This document shows positions 1 to 9,726 of a stretch of 9,726 nucleotides of DNA, in pieces; within the stretch, counting starts at the first letter, position 1, and every line of letters starts with the position of its first letter. The position numbers and the translations under genes are program-made. The notes below the pieces were generated by a model. The model searched no databases and had not been told where the DNA came from. It saw nothing but the letters and a program-made list of their open reading frames with translations. The DNA comes from a virus. Lineage: Duplodnaviria > Heunggongvirae > Uroviricota > Caudoviricetes. The stretch spans positions 1-9,726 of IMG/VR virus record IMGVR_UViG_2731957841_000002; one strand, given 5' to 3'.

Positions 1-1155
1 ATGCTCACCGTTAAGCAGATTGAAGCAGCAAAGCCGAAAGAAAAACCATACCGCCTACTCGATGGTAATGGCCTGTACCTTTATGTCCCTGTGTCAGGGA
101 AAAAGGTATGGCAGCTTCGCTACAAGATTGACGGTAAGGAAAAAATACTGACCGTAGGAAAATATCCGCTAATGACTTTGCAGGAGGCAAGAGATAAAGC
201 ATGGACCGCGAGGAAAGACATCTCGGTTGGCATCGATCCGGTAAAAGCGAAAAAGGCTTCGTCTAACAACAATTCCTTTAGTGCGATTTACAAGGAATGG
301 TACGAGCACAAGAAGCAAGTCTGGTCAGTAGGCTATGCAAACGAACTTGCCAAAATGTTTGATGACGACATTTTACCCATCATCGGCGGTCTTGAGATTC
401 AGGATATTGAGCCGATGCAACTGTTGGAAGTAATCCGCAGATTTGAAGATCGCGGTGCAATGGAGCGAGCCAACAAAGCACGCAGAAGATGCGGCGAGGT
501 TTTCCGTTACGCTATTGTCACTGGTAGGGCTAAATATAACCCGGCACCTGACCTTGCTGACGCCATGAAGGGATACCGCAAGAAGAACTTCCCGTTTCTT
601 CCAGCAGACCAGATCCCGGCATTCAACAAAGCACTGGCAACATTTTCAGGAAGTATCGTATCGCTCATTGCGACCAAAGTTTTACGCTACACAGCCCTAA
701 GAACGAAAGAACTTCGCTCCATGCAATGGAAGAACGTCGATTTTGAAAACAGGATTATCACCATCGACGCCAGTGTGATGAAGGGACGCAAAATTCATGT
801 GGTCCCGATGTCAGACCAGGTGGTTGAACTTCTCACTACGCTAAGCTCAATCACCAAACCAGTCTCAGAGTTTGTTTTTTCCGGGCGCAACGATAAGAAG
901 AAGCCAATCTGCGAGAACGCGGTATTGCTTGTGATCAAACAAATCGGCTATGAAGGCCTGGAAAGCGGTCACGGATTCAGGCATGAATTCAGCACGATTA
1001 TGAACGAGCACGAATGGCCTGCTGACGCTATTGAAGTGCAGCTGGCACATGCCAACGGCGGATCTGTGCGCGGTATTTACAACCATGCTCAGTATCTCGA
1101 TAAGCGCAGAGAAATGATGCAGTGGTGGGCGGATTGGCTTGATGGGAAGGTGTGA
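1..1155 (+). CDS. intS: Tyrosine site-specific integrase, P4 family (IntS-like)
   Basis: 384-aa ORF. N-terminus MLTVKQIEAAKPKEKPYRLLDGNGLYLYV fits the P4-integrase arm-binding domain pattern. C-terminal catalytic region has GHGFRHEF (His/Arg) and RGIYNHAQY (candidate Tyr nucleophile). Symbol assigned from memory of E. coli IntS; not verified. Confidence 0.9.
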   Translation: MLTVKQIEAAKPKEKPYRLLDGNGLYLYVPVSGKKVWQLRYKIDGKEKILTVGKYPLMTLQEARDKAWTARKDISVGIDPVKAKKASSNNNSFSAIYKEWYEHKKQVWSVGYANELAKMFDDDILPIIGGLEIQDIEPMQLLEVIRRFEDRGAMERANKARRRCGEVFRYAIVTGRAKYNPAPDLADAMKGYRKKNFPFLPADQIPAFNKALATFSGSIVSLIATKVLRYTALRTKELRSMQWKNVDFENRIITIDASVMKGRKIHVVPMSDQVVELLTTLSSITKPVSEFVFSGRNDKKKPICENAVLLVIKQIGYEGLESGHGFRHEFSTIMNEHEWPADAIEVQLAHANGGSVRGIYNHAQYLDKRREMMQWWADWLDGKV

Positions 1156-1158
1156 GGC

Positions 1159-1218
1159 ATTAGCGCAAGACGAATCGACACCTTCGCCAGTTTTGAGTTT
1201 TTTTTGCGCTAATTTTTT
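1159..1218 (+). terminator. Candidate intrinsic terminator after integrase gene
   Basis: 10-bp inverted repeat ATTAGCGCAA (1159-1168) / TTGCGCTAAT (1204-1213) followed by a T6 run (1213-1218). The enclosed loop is long (35 nt), so the call is weak. Confidence 0.3.
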
Positions 1219-1252
1219 GCCACAATCATGCTCCAGGCAATGAAAGCAAGCT

Positions 1253-1275
1253 GATGGTAGGTTATGATTACCATC
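1253..1275. promoter_or_regulatory. Inverted repeat GATGGTA-N9-TACCATC upstream of acyltransferase gene (candidate operator or RNA hairpin)
   Basis: Perfect 7-bp arms at 1253-1259 and 1269-1275, about 33 bp upstream of the ATG at 1308, at the GC-content transition into the AT-rich cargo gene. Confidence 0.2.
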
Positions 1276-1307
1276 TAATATTTATTCTTAAATAAGATGA
1301 GTATAGC

Positions 1308-2402
1308 ATGACCCTAAATAATAAAAACCTTGACATTCAAGCGCTAAGGGCGGTAGCCATAATAATGGTTATTCTACAACATTATAGAAATAGATTACCT
1401 TCGCCAGATTGGTATTTGAGCAGTTTTAATTACGTTAATTATTGGGCTGGAGTTGATATATTTTTGGCTATATCTGGATATTTGATGGCTAAAAGCTTAA
1501 CTGGGGAAATAAAAAAAACCGGCAGAACAACTAAAACATTTTTATTATTTTTATCTAAAAGAATATTTAGGCTAGCCCCATGCTTACTTGTATGGGGCAC
1601 CATCTGTATAATAATCTCTTATTTTATGCAACCTTCTTGGGGTGTTTCACCTCTTAAATCATTCACTACGTTATATACATCCCTACTTGGTTATTCTAAT
1701 ATCCACTTCTATAGGTGCGCAGTAACAGCAAATGATTGTGACCAAATGAATGCGGTGACCTGGTCTCTATCTTTGGAATGGCAACTGTATGCTATAATTG
1801 CGGCAATCATGCTGCTCTTTAACAGGAAAAATCTGACGATTATTTTCATATTCATAGTAGCTATTGCATCTTTCCTGCCAGTAACTCAAATGTACTATCA
1901 ATCCATTGGTTGGTGGATTAGACCACAAGCATTCTTTCTGGGAGCAATTATATTCATAACTGGAAGCAAGTGTTATGTAAGCAATAAATGCACAAGACTA
2001 TTTTTTATTATAGTTTGCATTTTTGTTTTACTCGTTGCCCCTCAGCACTTTAACTATAGATTGACATTACCTGCGATTGGTTTTGCTGGTGCATTATTAT
2101 TTCTATGTTTTATTAGTGGTGGTGTGGTAGATAAAAAAGATAATCCAGCATATAAAATGCTGGACTGGATTGGGGATAGATCTTATAGCATTTATCTTTG
2201 CCATTTACCATTACTACATGTAACAAGGGAGGTTTTGAACAAACTCTCCCTTAATACCGTCATTTACGAAAACAAAGTTATATACTTCTTCGCTTTCATT
2301 CTTTTGCTAGTTGTCTTTTCTGATTTATCATATAGATATGTAGAAAAGAAATTTATAAGAACAGGGAGACTAATAATGAGTAAAAATATTTCACCACTAT
2401 AA
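1308..2402 (+). CDS. Integral-membrane acyltransferase, acyltransferase-3 family (Oac/OafA-like O-antigen acetyltransferase candidate)
   Basis: 364-aa ORF, very hydrophobic with multiple predicted TM segments. N-terminal motif LRAVAIIMVILQH matches the conserved R-x10-H region of acyltransferase-3 proteins. Strongly AT-rich relative to flanking genes. Sits in the integrase-proximal cargo slot. Confidence 0.8.
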   Translation: MTLNNKNLDIQALRAVAIIMVILQHYRNRLPSPDWYLSSFNYVNYWAGVDIFLAISGYLMAKSLTGEIKKTGRTTKTFLLFLSKRIFRLAPCLLVWGTICIIISYFMQPSWGVSPLKSFTTLYTSLLGYSNIHFYRCAVTANDCDQMNAVTWSLSLEWQLYAIIAAIMLLFNRKNLTIIFIFIVAIASFLPVTQMYYQSIGWWIRPQAFFLGAIIFITGSKCYVSNKCTRLFFIIVCIFVLLVAPQHFNYRLTLPAIGFAGALLFLCFISGGVVDKKDNPAYKMLDWIGDRSYSIYLCHLPLLHVTREVLNKLSLNTVIYENKVIYFFAFILLLVVFSDLSYRYVEKKFIRTGRLIMSKNISPL

Positions 2403-2576
2403 TTCATCAATATATTCAGGGGGCAAAAACCTACCCTCTGAATATGTATACCCAACACCAACAACGCTATTGTCGTCAAGCTTTATACAGAGATAATCAT
2501 CGTATTGTTTTCCATCGCCGTTCCATAATATAACGTTAATCACAACATCATTTTCTACCAATGCATATTTCATCAT
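2397..2576 (-). CDS. Small hypothetical protein (59 aa), translationally coupled to the upstream fibre gene
   Basis: Hand-translated: MMKYALVENDVVINVILWNGDGKQYDDYLCIKLDDNSVVGVGYTYSEGRFLPPEYIDEL. Its ATG (2576-2574) overlaps the fibre gene TGA (2575-2573) as ATGA. Below the length cut-off of the supplied ORF track. Its 3' end overlaps the convergent acyltransferase stop by 6 bp. Confidence 0.4.
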   Translation of the reverse strand: MMKYALVENDVVINVILWNGDGKQYDDYLCIKLDDNSVVGVGYTYSEGRFLPPEYIDEL

Positions 2577-3475
2577 GCATACTCCCAGATAAGAACAATA
2601 CCATTACCACCGGCGGCTCCGTTATATTGGGTGGCATTATTCACATATGCGTTAGCCCCACCGCCCCCAGCCCCGAAACCAGTCGGCAATACACCGATAC
2701 CCGCTGAGCCGTGTGGATTACCACCCACACCTAATGGACTATTACCTCCGCCACCAGAGATGATAGAGCTAGTCGATATAGCCATGCCAATAGTTGGATT
2801 CTCTCCAGAGAGATTTAAAATATTACCTCCGGATGCTATAGGAATTCCTGGTGAGTTCTGAATAATAGGAGGTACCCCATTTCCTGAACCACCACCAAAT
2901 CCACCGCCAGCGGTTATAGATCCGAAAGAAGATCCACCACCGTTTCCTCCATTACCGTTAACCCCACCAGCTCCACCAGCTCCAATGGTTACAGTATATG
3001 CTGAGTCTAAATTGGTGATACGGGATTTAGCGTAGGCGCCACCTCCCCCTCCACACCCAACTGCAACACTGGTAGAGTTAGTTGTACCAACCCCGCCCCC
3101 TCCTCCGCCTGCGCCTTGGACTTCAACAATAATGCTTTTCGTTCCTGGGGTTGGCGTATAAGTCCCGGATGTCGTTATTGTGCGAACACCAATAAGCCGT
3201 CCTGTTGCAGCCTGCTCTACCGCACTCGCTAATTGCGCAGAGAGCCCCGCAATATCACCATTATCTTTCACATCCTCACTGGTATTATCTGCGATAAACT
3301 GCCCCACAGCAGCCGCCATTGCCGTTCCTTGCCTCAGACCTTTGTTCACCTGAGCACTTGATGCCTTCCCCGATGTAAAGCCAGCAGATAGGACAGGTAA
3401 TGATTCCCAGTCTGTCTGAGTTGTTACGTTAGCACCAGAGCCAGTTGCAAATGGTTTAAATTCATTTTTAGCCAT
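2573..3475 (-). CDS. Glycine-rich phage tail-fibre-like protein
   Basis: Long GGxGG/GNGG tracts typical of phage fibre or collar proteins. N-terminus MAKNEFKPFATGSGANVTTQ. Start chosen at ATG 3475-3473, overlapping the upstream gene stop as TGATG. The ORF track's alternative start at 3493 adds 6 codons but has an SD only 1 nt from the ATG. Confidence 0.7.
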   Translation of the reverse strand: MAKNEFKPFATGSGANVTTQTDWESLPVLSAGFTSGKASSAQVNKGLRQGTAMAAAVGQFIADNTSEDVKDNGDIAGLSAQLASAVEQAATGRLIGVRTITTSGTYTPTPGTKSIIVEVQGAGGGGGGVGTTNSTSVAVGCGGGGGAYAKSRITNLDSAYTVTIGAGGAGGVNGNGGNGGGSSFGSITAGGGFGGGSGNGVPPIIQNSPGIPIASGGNILNLSGENPTIGMAISTSSIISGGGGNSPLGVGGNPHGSAGIGVLPTGFGAGGGGANAYVNNATQYNGAAGGNGIVLIWEYA

Positions 3476-4155
3476 CAGAGTAATTTCCCCCATGCTCCTA
3501 CATCAAAACCACTGATGAATTCGTTATCCATATCAAAACCAAAAAATTTTGAACCTTCCGATGGAGTTTCCACCGAAGGTGTTTCAATGCCACCCGCCCA
3601 CACACCGGCGGCTTTTACTGTGAGATACCCCTGTTTAATTGCCGCAATTAACTCACGCGATACATCTGAAATATCAGTATCAGGAAAGACCCAGACCGAT
3701 ATCGTCATGTCCTGGTTATCGACAATCTGCATTCGCAGCCCGGCTCCTGCTGTCGCCGTGTCAAGAATTGCCGGAAGCGAATCATTCCGTCCGTCCCAGT
3801 TATTAATCGCAATCTTCGCTTTAAGGATGACACGATAAGTTTCATCGCTGAGGTACATGTATCCGGAATCAGGATCGTATGGCCCCTGCCATACACCCTG
3901 ATCATATCCAAGCCCGTCGGTATCCCAGCTGAAATAGATACCTGAGATAGGCTGGCTGACAACACGGCTACGCCCGATCCACAATCCCAGAATGTCAAGT
4001 TGCACACCAACGGCAGAGTCAATATCAAATGCAGTAATCAGCCCTCTGGTGGCAGCCGCAACATCAATAAGCGGCCGGGTCATCAGATCAACATGCGCAA
4101 GAAATTTAGGTTTGGTGGCGTGGTAGTTCGTGATTAGTTCGGTGTATTTGCTCAT
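3475..4155 (-). CDS. Phage tail/baseplate-associated protein of unknown function (possibly DUF2612-type)
   Basis: 226-aa ORF in an operon with the fibre gene. ATGA overlap with the upstream 172-aa gene. Family assignment is from memory and tentative. Confidence 0.7.
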   Translation of the reverse strand: MSKYTELITNYHATKPKFLAHVDLMTRPLIDVAAATRGLITAFDIDSAVGVQLDILGLWIGRSRVVSQPISGIYFSWDTDGLGYDQGVWQGPYDPDSGYMYLSDETYRVILKAKIAINNWDGRNDSLPAILDTATAGAGLRMQIVDNQDMTISVWVFPDTDISDVSRELIAAIKQGYLTVKAAGVWAGGIETPSVETPSEGSKFFGFDMDNEFISGFDVGAWGKLL

Positions 4156-4670
4156 GACTCCACCGTTATAACGATATTTTCCGGGGTACAGGACGCAGAT
4201 TCGTTATATCTGATATCAATGTTTGATGACGACAAAGCCCCCGGGGATTTCCCAATCGTCAGTTCCTGAATATCGTAATAGCGTGCATTACCGGTTTTAG
4301 CGTTGGCATTATCCGGTTGTTTCTGGAACGCAACACTGCGTGCCGTGATGATGTCGCCGCTGACCTTGTTGCGGATCACGATAACGTTATTCCCCCATGT
4401 GGCAGAAGACTGGCTCTGTGCGTTATACGCCAGCGACAATTTTTTATTTGTCGGTGATGTCTTCAGAAGGTTAACGGTAATCGTCCCGCTTTTATCTGCA
4501 TGGAGACTGTGCATCACTTCGCCATCAGCACCGATGGTCATGGTGTTTTTAGGACCGCCCATCGCAACCACAATCCCCTCTTCAGAACTTGCAGAACCGT
4601 ACCCGAGGTCAATCGAACCGGTCGGCCCGGTCAGCGTCGCAGTGACATCCATAAAAGAATAGGTAGACAT
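4152..4670 (-). CDS. Phage tail-module protein, unknown function (172 aa)
   Basis: First gene of the leftward tail remnant. SD-like AAGGGGAAG upstream of the ATG at 4670. Coupled to the downstream gene. Confidence 0.7.
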   Translation of the reverse strand: MSTYSFMDVTATLTGPTGSIDLGYGSASSEEGIVVAMGGPKNTMTIGADGEVMHSLHADKSGTITVNLLKTSPTNKKLSLAYNAQSQSSATWGNNVIVIRNKVSGDIITARSVAFQKQPDNANAKTGNARYYDIQELTIGKSPGALSSSNIDIRYNESASCTPENIVITVES

Positions 4671-4680
4671 TCACTTCCCC

Positions 4681-4773
4681 TTAGCGAACAACGTTAATCT
4701 GTACGTCAGCGTAATGAACCGCGCCTGCAAGTTTTATTGCAGCCTGAATCACCGGAGCCTTAAGGGCGCACAT
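4681..4773 (-). pseudogene. Probable C-terminal remnant of a deleted late gene (30-codon ORF ending ...APVIQAAIKLAGAVHYADVQINVVR)
   Basis: Hand-translated frame reads like a genuine protein C-terminus and stops just before the RBS of the 172-aa gene. Overlaps the end of the truncated cro-like ORF in another frame. Confidence 0.3.
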
Positions 4774-4882
4774 AGATCCCCTTCACCTTGTCTGCGGTAG
4801 CTCCCTGTGTGCATCCAACTGCCTTAGCAAGTGTTGTTTGAGAGATATTCAGTGACTCTCGATATTTTCGTAGGTTGCTCAT
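4760..4882 (-). CDS. Cro-like HTH protein, apparently C-terminally truncated (40 aa)
   Basis: MSNLRKYRESLNISQTTLAKAVGCTQGATADKVKGIYVRP has an HTH (ISQTTLAKAVGC) and is divergent from cI, as cro is in lambda. GGAGGG lies upstream of the ATG. Shorter than typical Cro proteins (about 60-75 aa). The ORF track's 97-aa version runs upstream through the operator region. Confidence 0.5.
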   Translation of the reverse strand: MSNLRKYRESLNISQTTLAKAVGCTQGATADKVKGIYVRP

Positions 4883-4908
4883 ATGCCCTCCATAGTAACC
4901 ATGAAACA

Positions 4909-4937
4909 ATAATACGATATGTACTTTTAGAATGCAA
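4909..4937 (-). promoter_or_regulatory. pR-like promoter for the cro-like gene
   Basis: On the minus strand: -35 TTGCAT (4937-4932), 17-bp spacer, -10 TATTAT (4914-4909). The spacer contains a GTAC-centred motif shared with the pL region, a candidate operator. Confidence 0.4.
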
Positions 4938-4993
4938 ACAAAAAATACATCTTGTGCATGGATGGTTTTAGTACAGAGCGTAATAATAAGGGT

Positions 4994-5653
4994 ATGAAAA
5001 TGAAATGGTATGAACTGGCTAGATCCAGAATGAAAGAGCTCGGCATAACTCAAGAGAAGTTAGCTGAAGAGCTTGGTATGACGCAGGGTGGAATTGGTCA
5101 CTGGTTGCGCGGATCTCGTCATCCATCTCTTGACGAGATTGGTGTGGTGTTTAAATACCTTGGTATTGATAACGTCTCATTCAACCACGACGGTACATTT
5201 TCACCTGTTGGCGAATACTCATCTGCCCCCGTTAAAAAACAATATGAGTACCCTGTTTTTTCTCATGTTCAGGCCGGGATGTTCTCGCCTGAGCTTAGAA
5301 CCTTTACCAAAGGTGATGCGGAGAGATGGGTCAGCACAACCAAAAAAGCCAGTGATTGTGCGTTTTGGCTTGAAGTTGAAGGTAATTCCATGACCGCGCC
5401 AACAGGATCCAAGCCAAGCTTTCCTGACGGGATGTTAATTCTCGTTGACCCTGATCAGGCTGTTGAGCCAGGTGATTTCTGCATAGCCAGACTTGGTGGT
5501 GACGAGTTTACCTTTAAGAAACTGATCAGGGATAGCGGTCAGGTGTTCCTCCAGCCACTAAACCCGCAATATCCAATGATTCCATGCAATGATAGCTGTT
5601 CCGTAGTAGGGAAAGTTATCGCCAGCCAGTGGCCTGAAGAGACATTTAGTTAA
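4994..5653 (+). CDS. cI: CI-type prophage repressor (HTH N-terminal domain plus S24 LexA-like autopeptidase C-terminal domain)
   Basis: C-terminal half nearly matches lambda cI as I recall it: [50 protein letters not shown] (Ser nucleophile), FTFKKL (Lys), plus an Ala-Gly cleavage site in QAGM. N-terminal HTH domain is unlike lambda. Start placed at ATG 4994 (AAGGG upstream) rather than the TTG at 4952 in the ORF track. Confidence 0.9.
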
Positions 5654-5684
5654 CAGCCTCACCACTCTAAAACACACAACAATA

Positions 5685-5713
5685 ACCCGACCTTAGCGTC
5701 GGGTTTTCTTTTT
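5685..5713 (+). terminator. Intrinsic terminator downstream of cI
   Basis: Stem ACCCGAC (5685-5691) / GTCGGGT (5698-5704), 6-nt loop, then TTTCTTTTT (5705-5713). Confidence 0.6.
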
Positions 5714-5778
5714 CCAAAATATAAACCCATTAAATACAAAGCGTTATAAAAAACTAATTATATTTAGAACATTTTGTA

Positions 5779-5807
5779 TTGACTCGATAAAGTACAAATC
5801 GTACTAT
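5779..5807 (+). promoter_or_regulatory. pL-like early-left promoter
   Basis: -35 TTGACT (5779-5784), 17-bp spacer, -10 TACTAT (5802-5807). The downstream transcript start region ATCAGCAGGACGCACTGACC matches the lambda pL transcript start as I recall it. Confidence 0.5.
5791..5805. promoter_or_regulatory. Candidate repressor operator (palindrome AGTAC-N5-GTACT) overlapping the pL -10
   Basis: Perfect 5-bp inverted arms. Related AGTAC/GTACT motifs recur in the cro-cI intergenic region (4921-4925, 4970-4974). Confidence 0.3.
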
Positions 5808-5846
5808 TTAGCCATCAGCAGGACGCACTGACCACCATGAAGGTGA

Positions 5847-5877
5847 TGCTCTTAAAAATTAAGCCCTGAAGAAGGGC
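5847..5877 (+). promoter_or_regulatory. nutL-type antitermination site (boxA TGCTCTTAA plus boxB hairpin GCCCTGAAGAAGGGC)
   Basis: boxB (5863-5877) is identical to the lambda nutL boxB. boxA (5847-5855) differs from lambda CGCTCTTAA at its first base and resembles the rrn-type boxA TGCTCTT. Spacer is AAATTAA as in lambda. Confidence 0.7.
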
Positions 5878-6049
5878 AGCATTCAAAGCAGAAGGCTTTG
5901 GGGTGTGGTGAAGGGTTCATGGATGGGAATATGTCGCACGTAAAGCGGCGAGGCCTGCGGAACTATTGCCGAATTGAAGTCGGCCGAAGCAGGTCGAAAT
6001 GGGTCTCCCACCTACCACACCACCAAAGCTAACTGACAGGAGAATCCAG

Positions 6050-6253
6050 ATGGCAAAGCAATCAAAACCATCACCTACACCTGAACAGGTTCTAAAAGCA
6101 TTCACTGACGCAGCAATGCAGAAAAACACCGTGGAAGAGCTTAAACAGGCGTTCGCCAAAGCGTGGAAGATGCTCGAAGGAACACCGGAGCAGCACAAAG
6201 CGCAGGACGTTTACAACATCAGACGAGACGAATTAGAAGGAGCGGCTGCTTAA
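6050..6253 (+). CDS. Hypothetical small protein (67 aa) in the position lambda N would occupy; not N-like
   Basis: AGGAGA RBS and ATG context match the lambda N start region as I recall it, but the protein (MAKQSKPSPTPEQVLKAF...) has no arginine-rich motif. The ORF track's upstream extension from 5999 lacks an RBS. Confidence 0.6.
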   Translation: MAKQSKPSPTPEQVLKAFTDAAMQKNTVEELKQAFAKAWKMLEGTPEQHKAQDVYNIRRDELEGAAA

Positions 6254-9525: not shown

Positions 9526-9726
9526 ATGCAACACGAACTACAACCTGATTCACTGGTTGATTTGAAATTCATCATGGCTGATACTGGCTTCGGTAAGACC
9601 TTCATCTATGACCGGATTAAGTCCGGCGACCTGCCTAAAGCCAAAGTTATCCACGGACGAGCAAGATGGTTATATCGTGACCATTGTGAATTCAAAAATA
9701 AGCTCTTAAGCCGCGCCAATGGGTAA
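9526..9726 (+). CDS. torI: Excisionase / recombination directionality factor, TorI-like
   Basis: 66-aa protein MQHELQPDSLVDLKFIMADTGFGKTFIYDRIKSGDLPKAKVIHGRARWLYRDHCEFKNKLLSRANG matches TorI of E. coli KplE1 as I recall it. GGAGA RBS upstream. The window ends at its stop codon. Confidence 0.9.
   Translation: MQHELQPDSLVDLKFIMADTGFGKTFIYDRIKSGDLPKAKVIHGRARWLYRDHCEFKNKLLSRANG

Follow-up and report, generated by a model that had tools for sequence, protein, structure and literature searches.

We analyzed the sequence IMGVR_UViG_2731957841_000002, a stretch of 9,726 nucleotides (nt) referred to here in its full length as the window, and focused on positions 4671-4882, where an immunity region meets a set of tail genes. 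This region is very probably a compound deletion scar in a decayed lambdoid prophage at argW, in which the start of cro, an internal piece of the head cement gene gp24 and the end of a tail sheath gene lie side by side. The scar is a case of ordinary prophage decay, a phenomenon that is already known, and carries little weight in itself. What matters more is the endpoint of the deletion within cro, which recurs in independent prophage remnants with different partner genes. The literature that we searched contained no earlier description of a breakpoint hotspot in cro, and as far as it shows, the recurrence across independent remnants is undescribed.

An open reading frame (ORF) check of the window recovered both small ORFs that the original prediction had flagged. 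The region and its surroundings contain the following features; in the motifs, here and below, a slash marks the breakpoint.

4760-4882, minus strand: chimeric ORF of 40 amino acids (aa), MSNLRKYRESLNISQTTLAKAVGCTQGATADKVKGIYVRP, made of Cro residues 1-28, gp24 residues 59-70 and a stop codon created by a junction
4798-4882, minus strand: cro remnant, codons 1-28 and the first base of codon 29; the parent is a 71-aa HTH_3 Cro
4761-4799, minus strand: relic of gp24 (head cement/decoration), the last base of codon 58, codons 59-70 and the first two bases of codon 71
4681-4773, minus strand: 30-codon ORF, MCALKAPVIQAAIKLAGAVHYADVQINVVR, the stop of which lies 10 nt before the ATG (4670) of the 172-aa ORF
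4681-4762, minus strand: end of the tail sheath (DUF3383) gene, the last ~26 codons and the stop
4152-4670, minus strand: chimeric ORF of 172 aa, tail tube residues 1-128 in frame with the last 44 residues of baseplate J
4798-4799: junction C, shared TA (cro GCTA/TC, gp24 GATA/CC), about 16.8 kb missing; identical to the recurrent cro breakpoint HS1
4761-4762: junction B, shared TA (gp24 CCTTA/TCC, sheath CCGTA/AGG), 4,417 nt missing
4287-4289: junction A, ATT microhomology (plus strand) between tube and baseplate J, 8,098 nt missing

Three pieces of the region matched three separate sets of E. coli genomes, and no complete genome spanned it. Window 4600-4767 matched, at 99.4% identity, the 3' end of a DUF3383 gene, after which comes a DUF3277 gene, and window 4761-4799 was 97-100% identical to an internal piece of the gene annotated as 'structural cement protein Gp24'. 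In window 4798-4960, the beginning of an intact cro gene (71 aa) and its operator region, which a divergent LexA-family repressor gene adjoins, were matched at 100% identity.

The cro remnant itself was 100% identical to the start of cro in E. coli H5 (locus L005, 4004-4088) and ET776. The intact Cro of H5 has 71 aa, the first 28 of which are identical to residues 1-28 of the 40-aa ORF, and its gene is followed by cII, two replication genes and ninB. A native Cro of about 40 aa in this family, which would have spoken against a deletion, was not what we found, as the homologues in other enterobacteria are 69-72 aa long. Pfam HTH_3 matched the intact Cro at residues 4-52 with 47.8 bits, compared with residues 4-27 of the 40-aa ORF (profile positions 1-24 of 55) with 22.9 bits, below the cut-off of 23. 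Whereas a complete Cro comprises a full helix-turn-helix (HTH) and C-terminal helices in about 71 residues, only residues 1-28 of the ORF are Cro. The reading frame had been described as stopping right after its HTH; instead, residue 28, located in the recognition helix within its first turn, is the last with homology to Cro.

The piece adjoining the cro remnant derives from gp24, the intact product of which belongs to Pfam Phage_cement / XM1_gp53. This relic of 35-39 nt was identical at 39 of 39 positions to the gp24 genes of E. coli PI24, CUPF09 and E89, and at 38 of 39 to that of IAI1 (genome-wide E = 4e-9). Translated in the cro frame, it reads TADKVKGIYVRP. Because the relic is in frame with cro, residues 29-40 of the 40-aa ORF are gp24 residues 59-70. 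The single junction proposed at about 4760-4785 is in fact two junctions, at 4761-4762 and 4798-4799, with the gp24 relic between them.

The suggestion that the 30-codon frame is a genuine protein C-terminus was borne out. Its residues K5-R30 recur unchanged at the C-terminal end of the DUF3383 proteins of IAI1 and PI24 (381 aa), corresponding to positions 470-493 of 493 in Pfam DUF3383, and the intact DUF3383 protein matched the solved tail sheath proteins 7kh1 and 8hdr. With this match, the objection that the frame might resemble no protein falls away. The sheath gene is far from full length, as only its last ~26 codons were kept without the native start; the ATG at 4773 that opens the ORF sits inside the gp24 relic and is fortuitous. 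Further, comparison of the 172-aa ORF with the tube (146 aa; DUF3277/KPP10_Orf10) and baseplate J (399 aa) proteins of PI24 revealed an in-frame fusion, which covers positions 1-134 of 144 of the Pfam tube profile. What had been taken for a native tail gene is thus the product of a third deletion, of 8.1 kb, and two of the ORFs likely to be called in an annotation of this region (40 aa and 172 aa) are chimeras made by junctions.

The losses were mapped on a full-length relative, the prophage of E. coli PI24 (NZ_CP074012.1, 1456318-1498514), which occupies about 42 kb at argW and contains about 75 genes. Its order begins with intS, acyltransferase, fibre, wedge, baseplate, tape measure, tube (DUF3277) and the gene at the sheath position (DUF3383), continues with neck, major capsid, Gp24, scaffold, portal, terminase, lysis, Q, nin and replication genes, and ends with cII, cro, cI, early-left genes and torI. 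Identity to PI24 was 99.95% for window 1-4293 (intS, acyltransferase, fibre, wedge and the end of baseplate J), 99.8% for 4287-4767 (tube and the end of the sheath gene), 100% for 4761-4799 and 99.2% for the torI arm. The retained pieces run monotonically along PI24 with order and orientation unchanged, that is, with no inversion or insertion. They are separated by gaps of 8,098 nt and 4,417 nt, and another ~16.8 kb of PI24 lie between the gp24 piece and cro, so that a total of about 29 kb is missing.

Absent from the window in comparison with the full-length relative are cII and the replication, nin/Q, lysis, terminase, portal, head, neck and most tail genes. This agrees with the proposal that a deletion had joined the immunity region to tail remnants with loss of cII, replication, Q, lysis and head genes. 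The accompanying claim that the tail shaft had been removed holds for most of it, but the last ~26 codons of the sheath and the first 128 codons of the tube remain. Unlike the window, PI24 carries a different immunity module (cI of 651 nt and cro of 186 nt); PI24 is a map of the losses and not the literal ancestor.

At the base level, junction C joins, on the cro-sense strand, cro (...CAGGGAGCTA/TCGG) to gp24 (...GGTGATA/CCGCAG) to give ...GGGAGCTA/CCGCAG; a three-way alignment placed the crossover between cro nt 83-85 and gp24 codon 59. Junction B joins gp24 (...GCGCCCTTA/TCC) to the sheath gene (...GCCCGTA/AGGCTCC) to give ...CCCTTA/AGGCTCC, connecting gp24 codon 70/71 with sheath codon ~355. 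The TAA stop of the 40-aa ORF (4760-4762) is assembled at this junction from the TA of gp24 and an A of the sheath gene. Junction A, which lies ~470-481 nt beyond the junctions of the flagged interval, leads from tube codon 128 (...GGTAAT/ACG) to the last 44 codons of baseplate J (...GGGAAT/GCA), with loss of the tube C-terminus, the chaperone, the tape measure, the baseplate hub, the spike, the sheath initiator and most of baseplate J. There was no insertion sequence (IS) element or long repeat at the junctions, where the crossovers share only 2-3 nt.

The exact 40-aa ORF is on record from 36 contigs, and an NCBI draft assembly contains the same element with 9726 of 9726 bases identical; the scar is therefore not an assembly artefact. 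Further, the exact 172-aa chimera is listed in 70 blocks of a public assembly index, and a TTG-extended form of the 40-aa ORF has been named from E. coli VL2732. None of junctions A, B and C was present in 5,426 complete E. coli genomes. Exact-pattern scans for B plus C and for C gave no match in species-representative genomes, Joint Genome Institute (JGI) metagenomes or IMG/VR, and the element was located elsewhere only through the exact-protein look-up.

The ancestor was very probably a PI24-like temperate phage of ~42 kb with a lambda-like early region and a contractile tail. Three collinear deletions in the same orientation (C, B and A in the direction of PR) probably removed its middle by illegitimate joining at microhomologies of 2-3 nt, and the short gp24 relic is most likely what two successive deletions, C and B, left between them. 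Near-identity of the pieces to intact relatives indicates that the deletions are recent. The survival of the remnants is uninformative about selection.

A related prophage offers a parallel to such a sequence of events. In the complete genome of E. coli 730V1 (L189), cro is joined at the same endpoint to Rz (...AGATA/CACAAAGGAGCTTGCTGATG). Loci L013-L015 carry the cro/Rz junction of 730V1 and, 12-15 nt later, a second deletion into a P22-like gene 7. Both belong to decaying P22-like argW prophages with a truncated dsdC in common, and they form a pair of intermediate and derivative, showing that short relics do arise stepwise. By analogy, a stepwise origin of the gp24 relic is probably the history to be preferred over one complex event, a judgement that we hold with moderate confidence.

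The strongest alternative traces all three junctions to a single accident of replication with serial, microhomology-primed switches of template, similar to template switching at stalled forks (FoSTeS) or break-induced replication mediated by microhomology (MMBIR), with the gp24 relic as a briefly copied stretch. The extreme shortness of the relic (35-39 nt), the forward direction of every switch and the microhomologies of 2-3 nt would suit such an accident, as would the failure to find intermediates, and ET776 shows a similar style, with cro, a 174-nt helicase relic and a baseplate gene. However, a one-junction intermediate of the analogous relic in L013-L015 does exist, in 730V1, and the missing intermediates of the window element are negative evidence only. 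We regard a single event as a possibility to be taken seriously, though not as the expected course.

A quite different origin, as a recombinant mosaic in which the immunity module of one phage met the tail genes of another without deletion in situ, seems very improbable. Lambdoid phages are mosaic, the immunity region 4798-6053 has no homology in PI24, and this same segment is 100% identical to the ET776 prophage at another site, sbcB. Nevertheless, all four retained pieces occur in the order and orientation of one intact genome, and both ends of the element (the intS arm and the torI arm) are PI24-like. Further, the same cro/cI module is found in intact prophages, where cII-O-P follow, and an ordinary exchange of immunity modules before the deletions accounts for the difference from PI24. 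Finally, the idea that both ORFs are halves of one frameshifted cro of ~67 codons, with no deletion here, draws on a fitting length (202 nt from 4882 to 4681, suitable for a Cro-sized protein) but is practically ruled out, since the second frame has as its residues 5-30 the C-terminal end of the sheath protein (381 aa), which is unrelated to Cro 29-71, and the DNA between the frames is gp24.

Several points weigh against the account of three successive deletions from a PI24-like ancestor. No intermediate with only A, B or C was found in the complete genomes or the protein database, so that the order of events and even their number (one complex or three) are matters of probability; a long Cro::gp24 fusion, expected of an intermediate with junction C only, was likewise absent from the protein search. 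For deletion C, the size was estimated on a relative and not on the true ancestor, because the immunity module of PI24 differs from that of the window. Further, the PR-like promoter facing cro is a consensus match only, from a consensus scan. A compound deletion scar remains the reading that we hold with high confidence. It is a cleanly resolved case in which a 42-kb prophage was reduced to a 10-kb remnant that keeps the repressor, the integrase/excisionase module and an O-antigen-type acyltransferase.

When first the 40-aa ORF and then the intact Cro were compared with a large protein collection, many Cro fusion proteins were found to diverge after exactly the same residue (...GCTQGA, residue 28). 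We fetched the DNA of these fusions, and every one read ...CAGGGAGCTA followed by a differing sequence. In ten independent remnants, which differ in their partner genes, cro is broken at GCTA/TC (cro nt 83-85; window 4796-4801). Loci recorded with this observation are L001, L010-L016, L041, L096, L182-L185 and L189, and the ten partners are as follows.

gp24: the window
end of the tube gene: L010 and L011
end of rusA: L012, the cI allele of which is only 92% identical
Rz: 730V1 and L013-L015
cII, codon 67: L016
replicative helicase: ET776, in a prophage at sbcB
four further partners, in the nin, Q-holin and tail regions: L182-L185

The parents of these remnants were of contractile-tailed, P22-like and lambda-like types and occupied different chromosomal sites. 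The prophage of ET776 (L001, 5269-6112) has the same build as the window, with a cro stump cut at the same hexamer, the 174-nt helicase relic and the baseplate gene, and its cro-cI-N segment is the one identical to window 4798-6053.

Judged from intact references, nine of the ten partner sites end in TA before the retained sequence (P about 1e-10), and the tenth (L016) uses AT. The partner tetranucleotides were GATA in three cases, GTTA in two, and GCTA, GGTA, CTTA and AGTA in one each, so that G stands at -4 in seven of the nine TA sites. Right flanks of the partners were unrelated to the right flank of cro. Partners share 2-4 bases on the left side only, with a single case of 6 nt (ET776), and the left end of cro was never resected.

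We collected 20 independent fusions that keep the 5' part of cro and break between nt 60 and 216; 11 fell within nt 84-90, compared with 0.9 expected (corrected P about 7e-8). Three events (L186, L187 and L188) form another, weaker cluster at CGCTT(C)/ (nt 113-114), 28 nt further downstream, and one event was located at TTGCTA/ (nt 58; L096). Thus, each of the three GCTW motifs inside cro (nt 58, 85 and 113) served as an endpoint. One protein, P0092, is a reciprocal fusion that retains Cro from residue 37.

Intact copies prevail outside this collection. Among the 777 cro-bearing records of the complete E. coli genomes, cro was intact across the breakpoint in 775, and both truncated copies break at the hotspot endpoint. 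In an unbiased sample anchored at the cro start, 159 of 161 metagenomic or viral loci were intact, and the two truncated ones were broken at nt 58 and nt 90. Neither further HS1 junctions nor a reciprocal class that keeps the 3' part of cro was found in IMG/VR or the species representatives.

Prophage decay is usually seen as random deletion followed by selection. Here, ten independent deletions began within the same three bases of cro in prophages of myovirus, podovirus and siphovirus type, and the shared endpoint together with the TA landing sites points to a mutational mechanism with sequence specificity. We infer that the endpoint in cro is not random, and that a recurrent breakpoint at GCTA/TC repeatedly yields an unresected 3' end, which becomes joined to TA sites lying downstream. 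As a cause, selection on the truncated protein was rejected, since it cannot account for precision at the nucleotide level with unrelated tails.

Tentatively, and with less than even confidence, we propose that GCTA/TC is a sequence-specific site of breakage or strand transfer (weaker at the two other GCTW motifs), the 3' end of which is joined to downstream GNTA/ sites, providing a dedicated route by which cro and the lytic genes are lost from lambdoid prophages with this common immunity module while the repressor is kept. A site-specific nick, a fork barrier, or an unrecognized nuclease or transposase-like activity of the host or a co-resident element could be the cause, and the pattern would fit a fixed 3' end on the cro-sense strand that primes joining or template switching through microhomology. 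As at hotspots of nicking or arrest, one endpoint is fixed and the other varies with few shared bases. Of the properties of a recombination site, a core dinucleotide is shared by nine of the ten partners at cro nt 85, but the partners show no two-sided resemblance to cro.

A more specific version, in which an enzyme such as a nicking or HUH endonuclease, a TA-targeting transposase or a serine-recombinase-like protein acts at GCTA/TC and at GNTA/ pseudo-sites, appears rather doubtful to us. The identical, unresected left end with ten independent partners, the bias toward TA and toward G at -4, and the use of all three GCTW sites speak in its favor, and junction B, which is also TA-to-TA, is compatible with the same process. 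However, no candidate enzyme gene is common to the remnants (nor, besides cI, is any gene), the dissimilar right flanks give no two-sided recombination site, the microhomology varies (AT in L016, 6 nt in ET776), and the spot has no hairpin, repeat or operator-like site. In particular, we detected no stable hairpin (z = 0.02) and no repeats at the cro endpoint, no copy of the candidate operator motif AGTACAnAnCGTAnT within cro, and inspection of the endpoint revealed no Chi, Ter, GATC or IS-end-like sequence. Two other candidates were set aside. A FokI/StsI-type GGATG site 10/14 nt upstream was treated as a coincidence, as the partner sites lack GGATG, and an imperfect inverted homology between the HTH codons of cro and cI was too weak for pairing. 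If confirmed, a sequence-specific endpoint in cro would provide a testable handle on how prophages are disarmed and a natural substrate for studies of microhomology-mediated joining or template switching in E. coli.

On the other side of the cro stump, the immunity region contains the following features.

4958-5653, plus strand: intact cI-type repressor of 231 aa (Pfam HTH_3 and Peptidase_S24)
4909-4938, minus strand: predicted PR-like promoter (TTTGCA, 18 nt, TATTAT), facing cro and the co-oriented tail remnants
6050-6053: fourth internal junction, where an in-frame fusion links the ATG and first G of the N gene to the C-terminal ~67 codons of a gene for an erf-family recombinase

The repressor matched lambda repressor (PDB 3bdn) with E = 5e-96, and the C-terminal domains are almost identical. 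It is a hybrid protein, with a lambda-cI-like C-terminal domain for oligomerization and autocleavage and an N-terminal DNA-binding domain of a different HTH_3 type. The candidate operator motif, which has partial dyad symmetry, is present at 4908-4984 beside cro/cI and at 5730-5805 downstream of cI, before the N stump; this placement fits OR and OL. At the fourth junction, N, cIII, kil and most of erf have been lost.

Cro would be dead, because it is cut within the recognition helix, and judging from gene content, all lytic, replication and morphogenetic functions appear to be gone. The element should thus be a locked immune, non-inducible remnant that keeps an autocleavable cI and its operators. 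No terminator-like site was detected on the minus strand from the PR-like promoter to position 4100. Upon SOS cleavage of the repressor, PR would transcribe the tube::baseplate-J, wedge and fibre remnants and the small downstream ORFs.

As a whole, the window is a complete, very small prophage remnant of 9.7 kb with the site and recombination module of KplE1/CPS-53, which are defined by intS ... torI at argW (PMC3509656). In the NCBI draft assembly, the element lies between yfdC/argW and dsdC. There (L009), a formate/nitrite-transporter gene and mlaA flank one end and a LysR-type gene the other, and the equivalent flanks in annotated relatives are yfdC, tRNA-Arg (argW) and dsdC. Thus, IntS stands beside argW at one end and TorI at the other, between yfdC and dsdC, as in an argW prophage. 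The features toward the ends of the window are as follows.

1-1155: intS integrase gene, the first gene of the window
1308-2402: Acyl_transf_3 membrane acyltransferase of 364 aa, directly after intS
2397-2576: ORF of 59 aa after the glycine-rich fibre gene, overlapping the end of the acyltransferase gene on the opposite strand
9526-9726: torI excisionase/directionality gene, the last gene of the window

A plausible role for the acyltransferase is that of an O-antigen acetylase. Its gene is shorter in E. coli E89 (939 compared with 1,095 nt), where an IS1 separates it from intS. In relatives, the 59-aa ORF carries no annotation beyond 'hypothetical'; it may be left over from tail-fibre assembly.

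Like the window element, KplE1 (CPS-53) of E. coli K-12 occupies the argW site between yfdC and dsdC, with intS first and torI last. Both are non-infectious remnants of ~10 kb in which genes from the tail-fibre end are retained beside intS. Unlike KplE1, the window retains an intact cI repressor, the operators and a cro stump. The internal deletions differ as well, and those of the window are recent (99.8-100% identity to intact relatives). Where the window has the acyltransferase, K-12 KplE1 carries the gtrABS-like genes yfdGHI for glucosyl transfer.

Engineered defective lambda lysogens, such as the cI857 delta(cro-bioA) recombineering prophage, keep cI and lack cro and the later genes. The window resembles this type in that the repressor and operators are kept and the rightward lytic genes are gone, with no switching or killing under the repressor. 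In contrast to the prophage that was built or selected in the laboratory, the window is natural, was shaped by three junctions and has tail-gene remnants downstream of PR.

With respect to the breakpoint itself, Michel and Ehrlich reportedly described deletion hotspots at the origin nick sites of M13 and pC194, and Bierne et al. are said to have found one at the replication arrest site terB. As at GCTA/TC in cro, one endpoint in these systems is fixed to the nucleotide and the other is variable, with few shared bases. At the M13 and pC194 origins and terB, the nick or arrest is caused by an identified protein, whereas the site in cro is known from sequence only and lies inside a coding sequence of the repressor family.

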